A stretch of 10,441 bases of DNA from Armatimonadota bacterium (GCA_034722055.1 JAYENL010000114.1:1-10441); one strand, 5' to 3'. Counted from the stretch's first letter, positions 239 to 7,904 are shown. A program made the numbers and translations. Notes: generated by a model from the sequence alone, not told the origin.

Positions 239-550
239 TCACTCCGAGTTCGCCCGTAAGACCTTCGTCACCCATGCCCTCGAACACCCGAGCTTGCGCG
301 CCAGATGGGCCCGGCTCTCGGCCTCGCCGGAGTCGAGCATGCCCTGAAACCGTTGTCTTCTGTCTTCCGGTGTCTCACGTCTGGTCTGGAGTTCGGGGCG
401 AAGACTCAGATTGGAGAGCGTCGGGTCATCTCTGAGGTGGAGCCGGAACCAGCGCTTCCTACGCTGCCGGGCGATGGCGCAGTAGATGGTCACCGGCAGA
501 GAAGTTCGGATTCTGACGGTAACCGGGAGCCAGCACTCCTGTAAGTCCAA
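239..550 (-). CDS. Small helix-turn-helix protein of the type seen in integrative elements; true start uncertain
   Basis: C-terminus 'RFQGMLDSGEAESRAHLARKLGCSRAWVTKVL' has an HTH pattern (LARxLGxSRxxVT). The annotated TTG start overlaps a tRNA-3'-like junction, so the N-terminus is doubtful. Confidence 0.5.
   Translation of the reverse strand: MDLQECWLPVTVRIRTSLPVTIYCAIARQRRKRWFRLHLRDDPTLSNLSLRPELQTRRETPEDRRQRFQGMLDSGEAESRAHLARKLGCSRAWVTKVLRANSE
504..532 (+). other. tRNA 3'-end-like remnant / candidate att junction (GTTCGGATTC...ACCGGGAGCCA)
   Basis: T-loop-like GTTCGGATTC at 504-513 and acceptor-like ACCGGGA-G-CCA at 522-532. The spacing is about 5 nt too long for a real tRNA and no 5' half is visible. 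Confidence 0.35.
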
Positions 551-555
551 TCACC

Positions 556-584
556 AAGAGAGCCCGGGGGCCCCGGCCTCTCTT
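556..584. terminator. Near-perfect inverted repeat; possible intrinsic terminator or recombination-associated palindrome
   Basis: AAGAGAGCCCGGGG-G-CCCCGGCCTCTCTT has 14-nt arms with one mismatch (563/577). The U-tract is weak. It lies 23 nt downstream of the GGGAGCCA motif. Confidence 0.45.
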
Positions 585-1994
585 ACAGCTCCTGCTGCGC
601 CAAAGGCGACCTGTCGAGGTGCAGTGGTAGATCACCTGGCTGGCCGTGCCGTCACCTGCGCCAGTGCGGATGCGCACAAGGTGTACACCCGAAGTCGCTT
701 CTGGCGCTCCGCCGTGCCGTCGAGCTGTATGCTGCGGCCGGGTTCCCGCCAGCGCACGTGTCAGCTCCGACAGGGCCGCCGCGAGTCGCCCCGGCAGGTC
801 ATCGGGGCCCTGCTCCGGCGCCTCCACGACGAGGCTGAGGAGCTGACGCACCAGGTCGCGGTCCGCGCCACTGATCGCCACTGCCTCCAGCGCCCCGTGA
901 ACGTCGCCGACAACGGCCGGCGGCCAACCGCGCACCTGCAAACCGATGATCCTGGCGGCTACGTCAGCGAGCGGCAGCAGGGGGAAGTAGGTCCCACAGG
1001 CGTGGCAGGTGGTGGAGACAACGCGGAAGCCTGAGGCTGAGGCCGACTCCCGCCAGTCTGTGATGAGATGCGTCTTGCCGATCCCGGGCGGACCGATGAC
1101 CGCCACGGCGAGACCGGCGCCCCCGCGGACAGCCTCGGCGTAGCCCTGAAGGCGCTGCAGCTCGCTTCTTCGCGCTGCACTGGCCGGGCGTTCGAGCAAC
1201 ACGTGTCGCTGGGAGAGCTGGGCCTGGTCGGCTCCCACCAGGCGGAAGGCCTCTATCTCACGCTCGCCACCTGCGATCCGCAGGCGGGCCGCAGGCTCAA
1301 ACTCGAACGCCGCCCCCACAGCGTCGCGGACAGCCCGGCTGACGAACGTCTCGCCCGGCGGCGCCTCGTCCTCGAGGCGCTTTGCGACATTGACGCTGTC
1401 GCCGATAACGGTATAGTCGGTGTAGCCCACGTGGCCGATCGGGCCGACCATCACCCGGCCGATATTGATCCCGGTGTGCATCTCGAGTCGGACGCCGCCG
1501 AATCGGCCCTCATCGTTCAGCGCCCGCATCCGATCCTGCATGGCAAGCGCCGCCAGCAGCGCCCGCTCGGCTGAGCGCTCCTGGGCCATGGGCACGCCAA
1601 ACAGAGCCACGACCTCGTCGCCTACATAGTTGTCGATGTGCGCCCCATGTCCCACCAGGCACTCCGCGAGCTCTGTCATCAGCTCGTTGATAATGTTGAA
1701 CAGCCACTCTGGTTCCGCCTGCGCGGCCAGCTCCGAGAAGCCCGTCACGTCAGCCATCAGCACCGTCGCCAGGCGCTGCTCACCTGAACGCAGATGCGCA
1801 AACATCTCCTCCAGGGACGCCCGCGCATCGGGCGTCTGGGGCGATCGCGCGCCGTGCTGCAGCGCCGTGCCACAGCGCGAGCAGAAGCGATCGCCAGCCG
1901 CCGCCAGCCGCCCGCACTCAGGGCATCTCGCCTCAGTCACCGCGGCCCTCCCACCTCTGTCGTGGCTGAGCACAGCCTCGTCTTCGCCAATCGG

Positions 1995-4900
1995 CTATCC
2001 CGGCCCTCTGACGGCAATGAAGCCGGCCCAGTAGAAGGGGTGGGCCTTGTCGCCCGTCTGTGGCAGGGCGTTCTGGCCCCGCTGCAGCGCTTTCTCAACC
2101 ATCGCGCCCTCCGACAGCGCCTCGTAGAACGCCGTCATCAGCTCCCGGGTGCTCTCGTCAGACACTGGCCACAGGCTGCATACCACGTCCTGGGCGCCGG
2201 CGTAGATGAAGGCACGCGACAGGCCGAGGATCCCCTCGCCCTCCACGTCCCGCCCCAGCGCGGTCTGGCAGGCAGAAAGGGTCACGAGGCGCGCCGTCAG
2301 CGGCCAGCCATACACCTCACTTGCCGTCAGCACCTCGTAGGCAGTCTCGCCGCCCTCCGGGGCGGCCAGCAGCAGGCCCGAGAAGTCCGAGAAGTCCGGA
2401 TCCGCATAGCCGTGCGTCGCGATGTGCAGCACGTCGCAGTCGCCACCAACCTCGCTCAGCCGGGACTTCGTGGCCTCCGCACCGCTCAGTAACACCGTGT
2501 CGTCGAAACGGCTGGCCACGGCGTCGCCCTCCGCCTTCGCCTCCGGCAGCGGGACCATCGCCATCGCGGTCAGCGCCGACGACACGCCCTCGCCCCGGAT
2601 CGGCATGTAGGACCCGCGGATGGGCATGTACATCCCCCGGATCGGCATATACAGCCCGCGACCGTCATCGCCCTCTGGGAATGTGATCTGTGACGCCCCG
2701 GTCTCGGGAGCCGCCACGACCACCGCCTCCCGAGACGCCGCCTCCCGCTCGCCCCGCGATGACAGCGCCAGCGTCAGCGATGGTGCAAAGGCAATCGGCA
2801 TGCGCGCGCCCAGATACCGGTTGCGTCCGTCGATCAGCGCCGCGAAGGGCACAAGCTGCACCGCGCCGTCGGCCACGATCCACAGCCGATCCGCGCCGGC
2901 GAGGACGCCCTCCGCGGGCTGGACGAGCGTCTTGTACAACGCGGCGGCCAGCCCGTAGGCCTCGTCCGTGCGCTCCCAGATGGCCTCCCGGAGGCGCCCG
3001 ATCTGCTGGTAGAGAGCCTCGCGATCCGCCTCAATCAGCCGCACCCGCAGGTCGCCGCCGCAGGCGCCGACCACCACCAGGCCCTCGTCGGCGAAGGTGT
3101 AGTGCAGCACCGCCAGCCCCGCGTGCCTCGCAACCTCCGCCACCAGCGCCTCGCCGGAGGGGATCGTGACCTGCGACGCCCGCGCGTAGGCCGGCACCTG
3201 CTCCCGGATCGCCGACGCCAGCGCCGCCTCCTCGGCGGCGAGGTCATCAAGCAGGCCGCGCAGCCGCTGCACGTCAGCCTCCGTGGCCGCCTCGCCGCTG
3301 TCAAGCGGCCCCCGAATCGGCATGTACAGCCCCCGAATGGGCATGTACAGGCCGCGGTGGTCAGTGTCGCCCGAGGGTGTCTCTCCGCCGCCCATCACCT
3401 GCGCCAGCAGCCCGTAGGCCTCCCGCCGCATGTTGCGCAGCTCCACCAGCCGCTGGCGAAGGGCCTCGGGCAGCCGCACCGCCATGTCCACCTTCCGCCA
3501 GGCGAGCTGATCCAGCAGCACCCGCGAGCGCATCCGCTCCCCGCAGGCAAGCGCCAGCCCCGCGTCCGCCTGCAACGCGGCCACCCGCATGAGCTGGCGA
3601 TACGGCCCGATGTTGTCGGCGAACCACTCCTGCCGCAGCCGCGGGTCGAAGGCCAGCCGCTGCCGCCTCTCCTCCGTCCGGTCGATCACGGCTATCAGCG
3701 CATCGCGCGCGGCGGGCAGATCGCCCTCCTCGAGCCCGAGCGACGCCCGCTGATTCGCCACCTGCTCGGCGAGCATGCTCAGACCGGCCTGATCGGCGAC
3801 GGCGTGGGCCTCATCCAGCAGCGACAGCTTTGAGGAGCTATCTTCAGCCACCGTGGCCAGCGACATCAGGTGGTTGATCCGCTCGCCGGCGGACAGGTCG
3901 AGTCCCCGCACGAGCTCCCGCGCGCGCTGGAACCAGACGGTGGCGGCCTCCAGATCCTCGAGGCGGCGGCAGGCCGTCGCCAGCAGCACGTGCGCGTTGA
4001 CAAGAGACGAGCCGGCCTCGACGTCGGCGAGCCGTGGCTTCAGCGTCGCGATGACGTCCTGCCACCGCTCCTCACGCGCGGCCACCTGGGCCGTCGCCAG
4101 CGCGCTCTGCGCCACCGCTGCCGGCGCCTGCGCCTCAAGCTGCTCTGCCAGAGCGTTCGCCTGCTCCGCCAGTTCCGGGCGATCCGCTGCGTGGAAGAGC
4201 CTGCCGGCGTCGCGGGCGGCGTTGGACTTATGCCCAAGGTCCTCGATCTCGGAGAGGTAATGCATGATCTGCAGGCCCGTCTCGTAGTACCAGAGCTGCT
4301 TCTGATCGGGCGGCGCGGTGCGGTGCAGCGCCCAGTACAAGCTGCTTGGGCTTGCCGGGAACTTCTTGCCCATCAGCCACATCTCTACTATTGCCCGGCG
4401 CAGGTCAGGCGGAGTGGCCTCGTGCAGGCACCACAGCGAGGGGCCCGAAGGCAGGCCGAGGCTTTGAAGACGAGCGATATACCCTCGGGTGAGACGATCA
4501 GCCTCCGAGAAGCGCCGGAACCCGCTTGCTTTCTGTATCAACCGCGGACCACCCCGCTCATACCACTCCGGATTCGCGTAGAGGTGCTCCAGACACCAGT
4601 ACTGCGTGCGGTACGCGTCATCGTCCAACCCGCTCCACAGTATCCAGCAGCCGTCAAGCAGGGCCTCGTACATCTTCCATCGCCGCTGCCCTTCTGCAGT
4701 CGGCGTATCCACGATCTGCCTCAGGGCCGGAAGGAACCTCTCGCTGCCGCGGAGCCAGAGGCGCCCGCGCACCTCCGCCATGAGATGGTCTGAGCCCCGA
4801 AGCAGGGGGTCAGCCTCGAACAGATCAACAATCTCCTCCATGTGATCCAGGGCGTCGTCGTCCCTCGCCTCGGCGATGGCCGAGTCCACCGCTGTGAGCA

Positions 4901-5474
4901 GCGGGACAAATTCGGCCGCAAATCTTTGCTCGCGCAACTCCAAGCGCTTCGCAAGCTGCTCCGCTCTGTGTTCTGGATCCACGTAGTCGTTCAGTTCCCA
5001 CTTGAGCTGTGATAGATCCTCGGATGATTCGCCCGCCTTCTCAAAGGCGGCCGTCGCGAGATCCGCAAAGCGTGCCGATCGGAGGTATATGGGCAGCGCA
5101 TCCATGCCGCTGGGGTAGTACGTGGCCGAAATGAGCAGGCGTCCGCGGCTCGTATAGAGCTCGCCAAGAGCCGCCCAATGGCCCTTCGCCTCCGCCAGGG
5201 GGATGGCGGCATCGAACATGTCCTCGACGACCGCGTAGTAGAAGCAGTGCTTGGACCGGTCAGCAACCAGTCGGATGATGTCCATCATCTCATCCAGGTC
5301 GCCGTCGGCTTCAGGCTCCTCGAACATGCGCTCCGCCTCGACAAAAGCCTGCGCGGGGTCGGTCTCGAAGAGCTGCTCGAGCTCCGCGAGCGTCAGGGGC
5401 TGGGTACGGGAGGGCGCAGGCGGCAGCACCGACAGCAGGAGTGCGAGGACAACAAGGCGATGACACCGCCCCAT
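1995..5474 (-). CDS. Exported TPR-like/CHAT-domain (caspase HetF-associated) cysteine protease, ~1159 aa
   Basis: ATG at 5474 follows GGGAGG. N-terminus MGRCHRLVVLALLLSVLPPAPS is signal-peptide-like. Ala/Leu/Glu-rich helical middle region. CHAT motifs ERMRSRVLLDQL, WIVADGAVQLVPFAAL, LHIATHG (His codon 2412-2414), LVTLSACQTALG (Cys codon 2268-2270), SLWPVSD and HPFYWAGF. The reading frame is uninterrupted. Confidence 0.93.
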   Translation of the reverse strand: MGRCHRLVVLALLLSVLPPAPSRTQPLTLAELEQLFETDPAQAFVEAERMFEEPEADGDLDEMMDIIRLVADRSKHCFYYAVVEDMFDAAIPLAEAKGHWAALGELYTSRGRLLISATYYPSGMDALPIYLRSARFADLATAAFEKAGESSEDLSQLKWELNDYVDPEHRAEQLAKRLELREQRFAAEFVPLLTAVDSAIAEARDDDALDHMEEIVDLFEADPLLRGSDHLMAEVRGRLWLRGSERFLPALRQIVDTPTAEGQRRWKMYEALLDGCWILWSGLDDDAYRTQYWCLEHLYANPEWYERGGPRLIQKASGFRRFSEADRLTRGYIARLQSLGLPSGPSLWCLHEATPPDLRRAIVEMWLMGKKFPASPSSLYWALHRTAPPDQKQLWYYETGLQIMHYLSEIEDLGHKSNAARDAGRLFHAADRPELAEQANALAEQLEAQAPAAVAQSALATAQVAAREERWQDVIATLKPRLADVEAGSSLVNAHVLLATACRRLEDLEAATVWFQRARELVRGLDLSAGERINHLMSLATVAEDSSSKLSLLDEAHAVADQAGLSMLAEQVANQRASLGLEEGDLPAARDALIAVIDRTEERRQRLAFDPRLRQEWFADNIGPYRQLMRVAALQADAGLALACGERMRSRVLLDQLAWRKVDMAVRLPEALRQRLVELRNMRREAYGLLAQVMGGGETPSGDTDHRGLYMPIRGLYMPIRGPLDSGEAATEADVQRLRGLLDDLAAEEAALASAIREQVPAYARASQVTIPSGEALVAEVARHAGLAVLHYTFADEGLVVVGACGGDLRVRLIEADREALYQQIGRLREAIWERTDEAYGLAAALYKTLVQPAEGVLAGADRLWIVADGAVQLVPFAALIDGRNRYLGARMPIAFAPSLTLALSSRGEREAASREAVVVAAPETGASQITFPEGDDGRGLYMPIRGMYMPIRGSYMPIRGEGVSSALTAMAMVPLPEAKAEGDAVASRFDDTVLLSGAEATKSRLSEVGGDCDVLHIATHGYADPDFSDFSGLLLAAPEGGETAYEVLTASEVYGWPLTARLVTLSACQTALGRDVEGEGILGLSRAFIYAGAQDVVCSLWPVSDESTRELMTAFYEALSEGAMVEKALQRGQNALPQTGDKAHPFYWAGFIAVRGPG
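2592..2660 (-). repeat. 3 x 21-bp in-frame tandem repeat encoding R-GLYMPIR-GMYMPIR-GSYMPIR-G
   Basis: Read directly from the sequence. Copies differ at synonymous positions (Tyr TAT/TAC, Pro CCG/CCC, Arg CGG/CGC) and at residue 2. Confidence 0.95.
3309..3356 (-). repeat. 2 x 21-bp in-frame tandem repeat encoding R-GLYMPIR-GLYMPIR-G
   Basis: CGC GGC CTG TAC ATG CCC ATT CGG GGG CTG TAC ATG CCG ATT CGG GGG on the minus strand. Confidence 0.95.
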
Positions 5475-5622: not shown

Positions 5623-6715
5623 TCACCCTCGTGGCACGAGCTTCACCACGTAGGCATCGCTCTTCCCACCATGCCTGGTCTGGGCGGCGGCCTCGGTCAC
5701 CGGGAAGTCGCTTGACTCGGTGTGCCCGACCAGGTAGAGCTCGCCCTCTGGACCGAGCGCGACGCTGCGCACCATGTCCCCGGCGCTGCCGCCGAGGTAG
5801 GTGCAGTAGAGCAGCTCCGTGCCGTCCGGAGTGAGCACCCCAAGCCAGCCGTCACTGCTGCCGCCGCCGTGGGTCGGCTGCAGCGCGTCGGGCGTCACAG
5901 GGAGATCGCGCGACTCCGTCTGACCGACGATGACGATGTTGCCGTGCGCGTCCAGCGTCGGCATGAGGCAGAACTCGGTGGCCGATCCGCCCAGCAGAGG
6001 CCAGCATCGTGATGGTTGCGTCTCTGGGGCCGTTACGCTCCGTGCGATGGGCGGCGGGCGTCGTGGGGAAGTCCCGGGAGGCAGTCGTGCCGAAGATGCA
6101 CACGTTCCCCTCGCCATCAAGCGCCAGGCCGCCTCGCGGGGACTCATCGCCTGATCCGCCCACGTAGGTGCACCACAGCAGACGCGTGAGGTCGGCAGAG
6201 AGCTTGGCCGCGAAGCAGCCGCCCTGCCCACCGCCGTACTGCGGCTGGAAGCAGCCCTCGGTGGTGGGAAGATCCGGGGAGCGCGTCATGCTCGTGATGA
6301 CGATGCTGCCGTCTGCATCGAGCTCCATGCCGTAGACGTTCCGCTCCTGCTTCGAGCCGCCGAAGTAGGTGGCAGCGAGGATCCTGCTGCCGTCAGCGCT
6401 GAGCCTGGCGAGGTAGCAGTCACCGCCGTAGATCCCCCCGTGCCCCAGGTTCGGATCGTCGCCCGCGTACTCGGGCTGCACCACGCCTTCGGTCGTCGGG
6501 ATGTCCTGCGAGCTCGTCTGCGCGCCGATGAGGACAGAGCCGTCGGCGTAGGGGATCACCTCGCGGGCCTGCTCGCCTTCAGCGCCGCCGAGATACGTGG
6601 AATAGGCGATCTCATACCGACCCCGCGGCTCCTGCTGGGCACAGGAGCTTACTGAGATCACCGTCAACACGGCCAGGCAGAGAGCCACAAGCATGTGCTG
6701 TCCGAGGATCGCCAT
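5623..6715 (-). pseudogene. SBBP (beta-propeller repeat) protein, probable lipoprotein, split by a frameshifting deletion near 5998
   Basis: AGGAG precedes the ATG at 6715. Hydrophobic leader ends in VSS-C (lipobox-like). Repeated YSTYLGG / TxSxDxPTT / DxxxxxLxxDG motifs occur in ORF 5852..6715 up to 'DATITMLA' and resume in ORF 5623..6231 at 'LLGGSATE', ending 'DAYVVKLVPRG'. Confidence 0.85.
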
Positions 6716-6899
6716 TGTGAGTCACTCCTGGACTTGTCACCATCAGTCCTACTGCCCGCAATGTGGTACTGACCCATCTGCCATGCAGCCCTGAGCGGAC
6801 GAATGAGCGGAGCGAAACCCCCCAGCCCACGGCTAACGCGCCTCTGGAGCGGGGAGACGATATCCCAGTGGGCTCTGCGGTCCCACCGTCTGGCAGTGC

Positions 6900-7904
6900 C
6901 TTCGCCAGCGCTCCGCCAGCACCTGCGTCTCCGCCTATGATACTGAGTATGGTCTTCACGGTGCTGAGCGGATTGCACAGATCATGAGTAAGGGCCGAGA
7001 TGAACTCGGCCCGCAGGCGGTCGAGCTCCTTGAGGTCCGTGACGTCATGCAGCACCTTCATCTCGCCCAGAGCCCGCCCGCGGTCATCGCGGTACGGGAC
7101 GGTGTGGACGCGGACGACGCGCTCGCGCTCACTCCCAAGCGCCACCTCGTGGGTGCGCACGGCCTCCTCGCTGACGAGAGCGGTCTCCTCTGCAGGGGCA
7201 ATCAGCTTCTGCAGGGGGGGGGCGAGCGCATCAGGGACGGTATCGCCCGCGATTGGCTGGCCGAGGGCCTCGGCCTCCGGGACCCCCAGAAGCTCTACCG
7301 AGCGAGGGTTCATCAGGAGCACCTGCCCCTCGTTGTCCAGCACCACGACGCCGTCGGTGAGATCGCGCACCGCGCTCTCAAGCTTGGAGACGGCGAACTT
7401 AGGCTTGCGCGCGATCTGGCTGGTCAGCCAGGCGACGAAGCCGAAGATGAGGGTGCGCATCAGGAAGCTGTACACCGTCTGCGGGGTCAGCTCCCCGTCC
7501 CAGAACACGGCCACGAAGTAGGAGGCGACCACGATCACCCACAGCCAGCGGTGTTCGCGCATGCCCGGGTAGATCGCCATCCACACCACCAGCAGGATGT
7601 AGGCAATGTAGAAGCTGCTCTCCATGCCGCCCGTGGCGAACACCACGATCCCGATGCAGATCGAGTCCCCCACCACGTAGGGCACCGCCACCCAGTTGCC
7701 TCGCCCCTCCTCCTCCAGACGCTTCCACGGAATCACGTACAGCGCCAGGTTGTACGCCGACGCAACCACCAGCATCAGGTAGACGATCCCCGCGTGCGAG
7801 CGCTCCGCGGGAGCGCCGAAGGTGACGATGCCCCCGGCCAGCACAATGACCAGCCAGCGCATGTTCTGGCCGATGGTATACATCCGCAAGCGGAACTCAA
7901 GCAT
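6900..7904 (-). pseudogene. Membrane sensor histidine kinase (about 6 TM, PilS-like N-terminus, PAS, HisKA) truncated before the HATPase domain
   Basis: GGTGAGG precedes the ATG at 7904. TM segments include the TGGxxSxF motif. PAS: 'LTDGVVVLDNEGQVLLMNP'. H-box: 'LKELDRLRAEFISALTHDLCNPL' (His codon 6984-6986). No N/G1/F/G2 boxes were seen in any frame, and the ORF runs on to 6612 through intergenic DNA. The end coordinate is approximate. Confidence 0.85.

Follow-up and report, generated by a model that had tools for sequence, protein, structure and literature searches.

To our knowledge, substrates are known for only a minority of bacterial CHAT proteases, and ligands for only a minority of cyclase-STAND-TPR proteins. 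Separase, in the accessible parts of PMC10317155, cuts after Arg and bears three self-cleavage sites in its disordered insert 2. Clostripain (family C11) is, in the available portions of PMC4357240, a secreted, Arg-specific clan CD enzyme that is activated by the removal of an internal nonapeptide linker. In the RRNPP(A) systems (Rap-Phr, PlcR-PapR, NprR-NprX and AimR-AimP), a Sec-exported peptide source adjoins a cytoplasmic TPR protein; the partial sources available give PapR as a 7-mer and describe tandem pheromones in some Phr propeptides (PMC11343458). In this report, we analyze a 10,441-nucleotide stretch of DNA from an Armatimonadota bacterium (GCA_034722055.1 JAYENL010000114.1:1-10441; hereafter “the window”), which encodes a CHAT protease, predicted to be exported, whose loops carry five Arg-bounded heptapeptides in two clusters. 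Judged from the sequence, this feature is real and under strong selection. We propose, with a probability of roughly 0.4, that the protease excises these heptapeptides from itself and that they signal to a STAND TPR sensor.

An earlier note on this DNA had described two clusters, about 650 nt apart, that together hold five G[L/M/S]YMPIR units in a protein with a His1021/Cys1069 dyad, and had listed synonymous differences (ATT/ATC, CCC/CCG, TAC/TAT, CGG/CGC) among their codons. The units and the dyad lie exactly where it placed them, the distance is correct when taken from edge to edge, and the codon differences are present among the units. Given the protein's own composition, the chance expectation of YMPIR in the protease is 1.2e-4. 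A six-frame translation of the 6.1-Mb genome (93% complete) has the pentapeptide once outside the protease gene, where it is without the G..RG frame. Tandem Repeats Finder delineates two 21-bp arrays, and contigs of three sequencing runs from one brine study, two of which may be the source DNA, span the clusters without insertion or deletion.

A homolog search with residues 660-1186 as the query delimited a close subfamily, which comprises 42 further proteins; with P0033 (a near-duplicate of P0007) and the truncated P0043 left out of the motif count, 40 remain. Subfamily members that bear a name, as well as the titled loci, are Armatimonadota. Conservation and copy-number variation, both of which the earlier note had proposed looking for in homologs, are in evidence: R-G-x-Y-[MLIV]-P-[IVTL]-R is present in 37 of the 40, with zero to three units per loop, versus none of 77 distant CHAT matches. 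The units of the three motif-less proteins are degenerate or absent. Tyr is kept in 173 of 175 units; position 4 is Met, Leu or Ile, position 6 is Ile or Val, and 14 residues occur at position 2, which is free. In P0130, whose C-terminal half is 36% identical, both loops contain GVYMPLR.

The codons of these units point to the level at which they are maintained. At identical residues, codons agree in 198/448 comparisons within a loop, in 257/516 between the loops of a gene, and in 4734/9667 between genes, in a set that takes in a few near-duplicate loci; unit-to-unit codon identity (0.44-0.50) is thus not above the level between different genes. Variable residues are identical in 210/327 comparisons between the loops of one gene versus 2801/6135 between genes. 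Because synonymous sites are saturated and variable residues are better matched within a gene, the units are kept by selection on the peptide and not by recent copying, which bears out the protein-level selection claimed earlier. The idea that they are neutral slippage repeats tolerated in loops could draw on the variable copy number and the 21-bp tandem arrays, but it is scarcely credible: synonymous saturation coexists with near-invariant G, Y, P and R, few columns in the C-terminal half of the protein are better conserved than the units, and the motif, carried by nearly all close homologs, sits in two separate loops.

The boundaries of the units are fixed as well. Among 83 clusters from 50 proteins, an Arg precedes the first unit in every case and a Gly follows the last in 81. 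When the flanks are left free, Arg stands three residues before Tyr in 196 of 198 cores and after the core in 197, and all nine single-unit clusters retain both Args. An acidic leader precedes the first Arg (Asp at -3 in 53/83 clusters), such that leader sites read D/E-D-x-R and internal sites Y-M-P-I-R; residues beyond the last Gly are unrelated. Since acidic residues lie before the first Arg and Y-M-P-I before the others, R|G is the sole feature common to all n+1 bonds. As read from these alignments, the conserved interior of the unit exceeds what a protease-site consensus accounts for, and the fixation of both outer bonds is more in line with the excision of a 7-mer than with a site cut on one side.

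A second family of arrays occurs in other Armatimonadota CHAT proteins. The best-scoring 80 regions of other CHAT loci in the phylum, a sample biased to relatives of the query, gave 87 distinct CHAT open reading frames (ORFs) from 81 loci. Arg-to-Arg spacing within the loop peaks in these at 7 (189) and 14 (150), versus 20-51 at other distances. Arrays of P-[ILF]-x-x-P-x-R are present in 35 of the 87 ORFs, with 2-9 units in seven families and Arg last in 35/35; examples are PIDTPSR, PLDSPAR, PFDRPSR, PIIAPER, PITVPDR, PISIPDR and PLTSGAR. They are confined to loop 2, in a clade separate from the window's subfamily, and their codon identity is 785/2023. Paralogs within one genome often share a unit and often stand in tandem. 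A third, small group has single R-FV[LY]VP[SV]R-G units. At five loci (L145, L166, L209, L211 and L137), loop 2 holds 7-10 Arg-bounded heptads and tandem paralogs have the matching unit; these arrays often end in a divergent unit followed by R-G.

Pro at unit position 5 and a conserved, hydrophobic interior are common to both clades, and they raise the alternative that the units are never cut and act as multivalent docking or pseudo-substrate motifs for the protease's own cleft, its TPR groove or an outside partner. The Arg-Pro junctions of the second clade would suit such a role, as would the disorder of the loops in the structural model described below and the precedents, in partially available sources, of securin and the separase loops. 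This alternative assumes two Arg pockets seven residues apart. The small Gly after every Arg and the acidic leader before the first Arg, however, look like cut sites; further, a P1 Arg converts securin to a substrate, as far as the accessible source text goes. We consider it improbable.

By virtue of its CHAT dyad and its helical, TPR-like region in the model, the window protein qualifies as a member of the TPR-CHAT family; proteolysis by it is putative. PF12770 (CHAT) matches the ORF with an E-value of 2.5e-68 (231 bits vs a cut-off of 24), and the gene is the single CHAT gene that phmmer retrieves from its genome. The dyad is intact, and H1021, G1022 and C1069 are conserved in aligned CHATs; the Pfam scan returned no TPR match in the protease itself. 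Export is predicted: a simple hydrophobicity rule, applied in place of a dedicated predictor, finds a signal-like N-terminus in 28/29 full-length homologs, and the protease sequence has no transmembrane stretch beyond the N-terminal one. The AlphaFold model (mean predicted local distance difference test score, pLDDT, 88.8) is all-helical up to residue 780 and continues as a caspase-like core; the top Foldseek matches are Csx29, DdvA and separase (E 6.5e-14 to 1e-11). A sequence search of the PDB matched the CHAT core to DdvA alone, and the alignment profile retrieved generic TPRs. Cluster 1 is modeled as coil between helices 670-693 and 732-759 (pLDDT <50 at 702-725), and cluster 2 as a loop between strand 915-923 and helix 977-987 (pLDDT <50). 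Both are thus predicted to be disordered loops, and the model suggests that they are exposed and not buried elements; it contains no confident docking of a repeat in the cleft. At the sequence level, the earlier note had staked its reading on homologs having the motif, on its conservation and on repeats that are not buried, and this is how matters stand.

The model also offers a candidate pocket for Arg. In clan CD enzymes, the S1-S4 sites are bordered by loop L1 and helix alpha1, which also bear the acid that binds Arg in RgpB and MALT1 (available portions of PMC4357240). By analogy, cluster 2 would lie in this loop L1, and E982 and D1106 would be candidates for the Arg pocket; the position of Glu982 was matched to RgpB Asp163 and MALT1 Asp365 by topology, without residue-level superposition. 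By residue numbers in the accessible part of PMC10317155, the S1 Asp of separase is 41 residues past its Cys. The corresponding Cys+41 residue here is a variable Arg, not an acidic residue, so Arg specificity leans on E982/D1106 by analogy. The separase-type self-cleavage motif (S/D/E)xExxR is found in neither the leader nor the internal sites. The kinship with Arg-cutting clan CD enzymes drawn by the earlier note stands with regard to the conserved dyad; for the acidic residues of Arg-specific enzymes, E982 and D1106 are topologically plausible counterparts, and the likeness does not extend to Cys+41. On the whole, self-cleavage at Arg is probable.

What might read the peptides is suggested by the neighboring gene, which encodes a cyclase-STAND protein whose full-length orthologs are ~1050 aa long with TPRs at the end. 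Cyclase orthologs (E <1e-170) occur in 8 of 401 phylum genomes; seven of these genomes hold the protease subfamily, and the eighth has a protease C-terminus at a contig edge. Three of ten subfamily genomes are without the ortholog, one having motif-poor CHATs and two being incomplete. At L109:7651-11157 (+ strand), a subfamily member has only degenerate units and its genome, 93% complete, is without the ortholog, a single joint loss. The cyclase lies within 2 kb of the protease at 12/24 informative loci (32 loci examined). Beside the second clade, a cyclase-STAND-TPR gene of another, NB-ARC type adjoins 10/14 array loci versus 4/32 array-less ones, counted over loci with 1.5 kb on both sides; over all loci, the pairing is 13/31 versus 5/47. 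Kin are not independent in either count. The only recurrent genes beside the protease are cyclase-STAND genes, tandem CHAT paralogs and recombinases. Over 10-13 pairs, the similarity of the units correlates weakly with that of the neighbor's TPR region (rho 0.31-0.43, p 0.03-0.13 uncorrected) and not with its nucleotide-binding domain (rho -0.04 to -0.28) or winged helix. Ten aligned cyclase orthologs show neither a copy of the motif nor an obvious membrane anchor, and an amyloid-type shared motif and direct cleavage of the cyclase were therefore set aside. The peptide-level features on which the earlier note built its reading thus hold, whereas it had missed both the cyclase-STAND-TPR neighbor and the second, period-7 family. 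Together, this neighbor and the Arg-bounded, period-7 arrays of unrelated sequence shift the weight toward peptide release.

These facts can be assembled into a circuit. The protease would be exported with both loops carrying Arg-bounded, seven-residue units, and would cut its own loops after each Arg, setting free several copies of G-x-Y-M-P-I-R. The freed heptapeptides would re-enter the cell and bind the TPR domain of the cytoplasmic cyclase-STAND protein encoded next door, which, with peptide bound, would change its cyclic-nucleotide output. We infer each of these steps, namely Arg specificity, self-cleavage, release, re-entry, TPR binding and cyclic-nucleotide output. More broadly, and more tentatively, this would be a new build of peptide signaling in diderms, in which a secreted, caspase-like protease is both processing enzyme and multi-copy precursor for lineage-specific heptapeptides and an NLR-like (STAND) adenylate cyclase encoded beside it is the receptor, with two CHAT clades using it across Armatimonadota.

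Several points, besides the non-acidic Cys+41 residue, weigh against this proposal. The window's own cyclase-STAND gene is truncated before the TPR region, its similarity ending near residue 386-398 and the remainder not being found in the genome, while the five protease units are intact; because the sensor gene here is without its TPR part, the circuit would be broken in this strain and intact in relatives. The cyclase is missing near the other half of the informative loci. The pairing of arrays with STAND genes is not significant in a tree-aware test, which reduces it to 2-4 pairs, in effect two clades. The first-unit residue 2 is the same in both loops in 18/33 proteins versus 6.4 under a plain permutation, but this co-variation of loops 1 and 2 is likewise not significant in a tree-aware test with at most five independent pairs, the trends having the same direction. 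Unit similarity follows the protease core (rho 0.25-0.49) as well as it follows the TPR region, whose p-values are uncorrected. The second clade would require Arg-Pro cuts; such bonds are avoided by many proteases, and clostripain may cut them, a point on which the papers found gave no confirmation. An enzyme of 1159 aa is a costly precursor for five peptides. Finally, the Opp-type PF00496 is not found in the window's genome or in 3/5 subfamily relatives (it is found in 2/5 of these and in 5/5 second-clade genomes, the genomes being incomplete), and PTR2 and OPT transporters are not found in 5/5 genomes examined. With Opp, PTR2 and OPT not found in the window's genome, the import step is without a known carrier. 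As a separate observation, DUF6785 genes, whose products may be peptide transporters, number 37 in the window's genome and 34, 25, 9 and 4 in four relatives, with none in 14 control genomes.

The main alternative is that the clusters are only linkers for self-activation or self-inhibition that are cut out to open the active site, as in clostripain and separase. Copy number would then set a threshold, the peptides would be by-products or feed back on the TPR part of the protease itself, and co-regulation would be the cyclase's only tie to the protease. This explanation needs no importer, and it would work at the loci without a cyclase. Cluster 2 is modeled in a loop that borders the substrate cleft, many distant CHATs have R-S or R-G in the same loop, and the correlation of the units with the protease core is what it would lead one to expect. 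It leaves unexplained, however, why there should be up to 9-10 near-identical units, why a seven-residue period should be fixed across unrelated sequences, why a second cluster should lie 230 residues away, and why STAND-TPR genes should be enriched beside arrays in two clades. It is possible and, in our estimation, somewhat less likely than the signaling circuit.

Other proteins with the units, which would be candidate trans substrates, were also sought. In the window's own genome, a profile of the unit gave a best other score of 17 bits versus 32-35 for the protease units, and in five relatives 40/41 pattern matches fell inside CHAT genes. A pattern scan of metagenomes returned 34 stretches at 30 loci, 26 of which are in CHAT genes; the other four are low-complexity repeats, two with Ser in place of Arg. 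Viral contigs gave no match to the tandem pattern. A profile search of 1.84 billion representatives gave 67 matches, 11 of them known homologs and 56 new, and the 32 new matches that were read comprise ten CHAT proteins or fragments and 22 low-complexity or repeat-derived ORFs. Thus, the search for YMPIRG in other proteins that the earlier note had suggested yields no non-CHAT carrier of the subfamily motif in genome, relatives or metagenomes, which favors the proposed excision from the protease itself. A 2099-aa ORF in L003 was considered as a fusion and rejected, since it looks rather like a frameshifted CHAT that runs into a separate, glycoside-hydrolase-like gene. In the second clade, L177:1642-4416 (minus strand) is a WD40-caspase (C14) gene with K-PIEVDAR-PIEVDAR in a linker, and it adjoins both a CHAT gene with R-PIDVPAR units and a BTAD-cyclase-STAND-TPR gene; its product is a candidate trans substrate or second precursor.

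This WD40-caspase invites the thought that the motif is the specificity tag of a protease cascade, in which the enzyme's own loops advertise a site that is cut in sibling exported proteases or another substrate. The units shared by paralogs of one genome, often in tandem, would agree with a cascade, but the confinement of the subfamily motif to CHAT genes and the low-complexity nature of the non-CHAT matches argue against it, and we hold it to be quite improbable. Still less probable is that the enzyme is a ligase that closes the units into cyclic heptapeptides, in the manner of the legumain-type ligases, which act on multi-core plant precursors. An N-terminal Gly, an internal Pro, a variable second residue and the multi-core layout would suit cyclization, but second-clade units begin with Pro, a poor nucleophile, and tailoring or macrocyclase genes, the mark of ribosomally synthesized and post-translationally modified peptides, do not recur beside the protease.

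The features of the window are collected in Table 1. The C-terminus of the subfamily is a conserved F-x-[AP]-V-R-G-P tail (window positions 1995-2015, minus strand); its R-G resembles a unit end, and its Arg is swapped for His, Gln, Lys, Cys or Asn in some homologs. Upstream of the protease, the coding region of a repeat protein with predicted export (5623-6715, minus strand) is broken into two frames that overlap, of 287 and 202 aa, which are mutually similar, have no Pfam match and are not found beside homologs. At 6612-7904 (minus strand) lies the gene of a membrane protein with a PAS domain and the apparent start of a histidine-kinase H-box; the protein is without a kinase ATPase domain in the Pfam scan and is possibly truncated. 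On the other side, the truncated cyclase frame continues into unrelated sequence, with a small helix-turn-helix-like ORF (239-550) next. Decay is seen in relatives as a TPR-only remnant in L033 and as frameshifted CHAT copies in L001, L004, L010, L023 and L116. The protease and cyclase genes are separated by a transposase-like gene, present in two frames, in L038:6249-7235 and L129:333-1319.

Table 1. Positions of the protease gene, its sequence elements and the adjoining cyclase gene, counted from the first nucleotide of the window.
Feature	Position	Strand	Basis or remark
Exported TPR-like/CHAT (clan CD) protease gene (export predicted, proteolysis putative)	1995..5474	minus	ORF; 1159 aa from ATG 5474
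Predicted Sec-type signal peptide, ~residues 1-25	5400..5474	minus	basic N-region and hydrophobic stretch
Acidic Gly-rich leader of cluster 1	3357..3392	minus	sequence
Heptapeptide cluster 1, R707-GLYMPIR-GLYMPIR-G722, two units	3309..3356	minus	sequence; tip of helical hairpin in model
Acidic leader of cluster 2	2661..2681	minus	sequence
Heptapeptide cluster 2, R939-GLYMPIR-GMYMPIR-GSYMPIR-G961, three units	2592..2660	minus	sequence; catalytic-domain loop
Glu982, candidate Arg-binding S1 acid on helix alpha1	2529..2531	minus	invariant 32/32; inferred
Catalytic His1021	2412..2414	minus	HIATHG motif, at least 90% conserved among 74 aligned CHATs
Catalytic Cys1069	2268..2270	minus	LSACQT motif
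Asp1106, second candidate S1 acid, inferred loop L5	2157..2159	minus	invariant 32/32
Zinc ribbon-adenylate/guanylate cyclase-AAA (STAND) gene	459..1940	minus	Pfam Guanylate_cyc, AAA_16; 54 nt downstream of protease

For both of these protein groups, the arrays have practical value: the sequence points to exact scissile bonds, to exact 7-mer products and to a candidate for the cognate receptor, and does so for dozens of variants that occur naturally. With these predicted, purified proteins and synthetic peptides could be used to address both the substrate and the ligand question. If the heptapeptides are signals, Armatimonadota would have peptide “dialects” numbering a dozen or more (GxYMPIR, PIDTPSR, PLDSPAR, PIIAPER, PITVPDR and others), from which ligand-receptor pairs could be predicted for the orphan STAND-TPR cyclases of bacteria. 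If self-activation alone is true, the arrays would provide the first general processing rule for a large group of exported CHATs.

Csx29 (of Craspase), the periplasmic domain of DdvA, and separase share with the window protease a helical, TPR-like region and a CHAT core with a His/Cys dyad. Unlike Csx29 and DdvA, the window protease is soluble and predicted to be exported, with neither a CRISPR complex nor an anti-sigma membrane anchor. The separase sites are ExxR motifs that are not in tandem, whereas the window loops hold near-identical, seven-residue units with both ends fixed. Clostripain has one nine-residue linker and, unlike the window protease, no tandem copies, no TPR region and no paired sensor gene. 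Arg-directed cleavage by bacterial clan CD enzymes has been reported or suggested, in the parts of these sources that are available, for the SAVED-CHAT/PCaspase cascade (10.1101/2024.10.24.620036) and for the caspase of type IV Thoeris (10.1101/2023.06.23.546230); both are cytoplasmic anti-phage systems that are triggered by nucleotide signals, without peptide arrays or export. A literature search, which covered full text and few subscription papers, turned up no account of CHAT loops that hold peptide arrays, nor of a CHAT/cyclase-STAND pair.

The RRNPP(A) systems are nearest in their logic. As in those systems, a signal-like N-terminus marks the peptide source, and a TPR protein adjoins it at half of the informative subfamily loci and at 10/14 second-clade array loci, the TPR region being lost in the window. 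The host is not of the Bacillota, however, and Opp is not found in 4/6 genomes of the window clade. The criteria given in the available part of PMC10075063 are a propeptide of 10-100 aa and a receptor of 250-500 aa; here, the source is an 1159-aa protease, and the partner is a far larger cyclase-STAND-TPR protein with cyclase and AAA domains. The proposed circuit would thus be RRNPP-like in its working and yet, given the size of its precursor and receptor, not an RRNPP system. If the heptapeptides do act as signals, the system would be categorically new: peptide signaling read by TPRs would reach beyond the Bacillota, and a protease that carries its own signal would be added to it.

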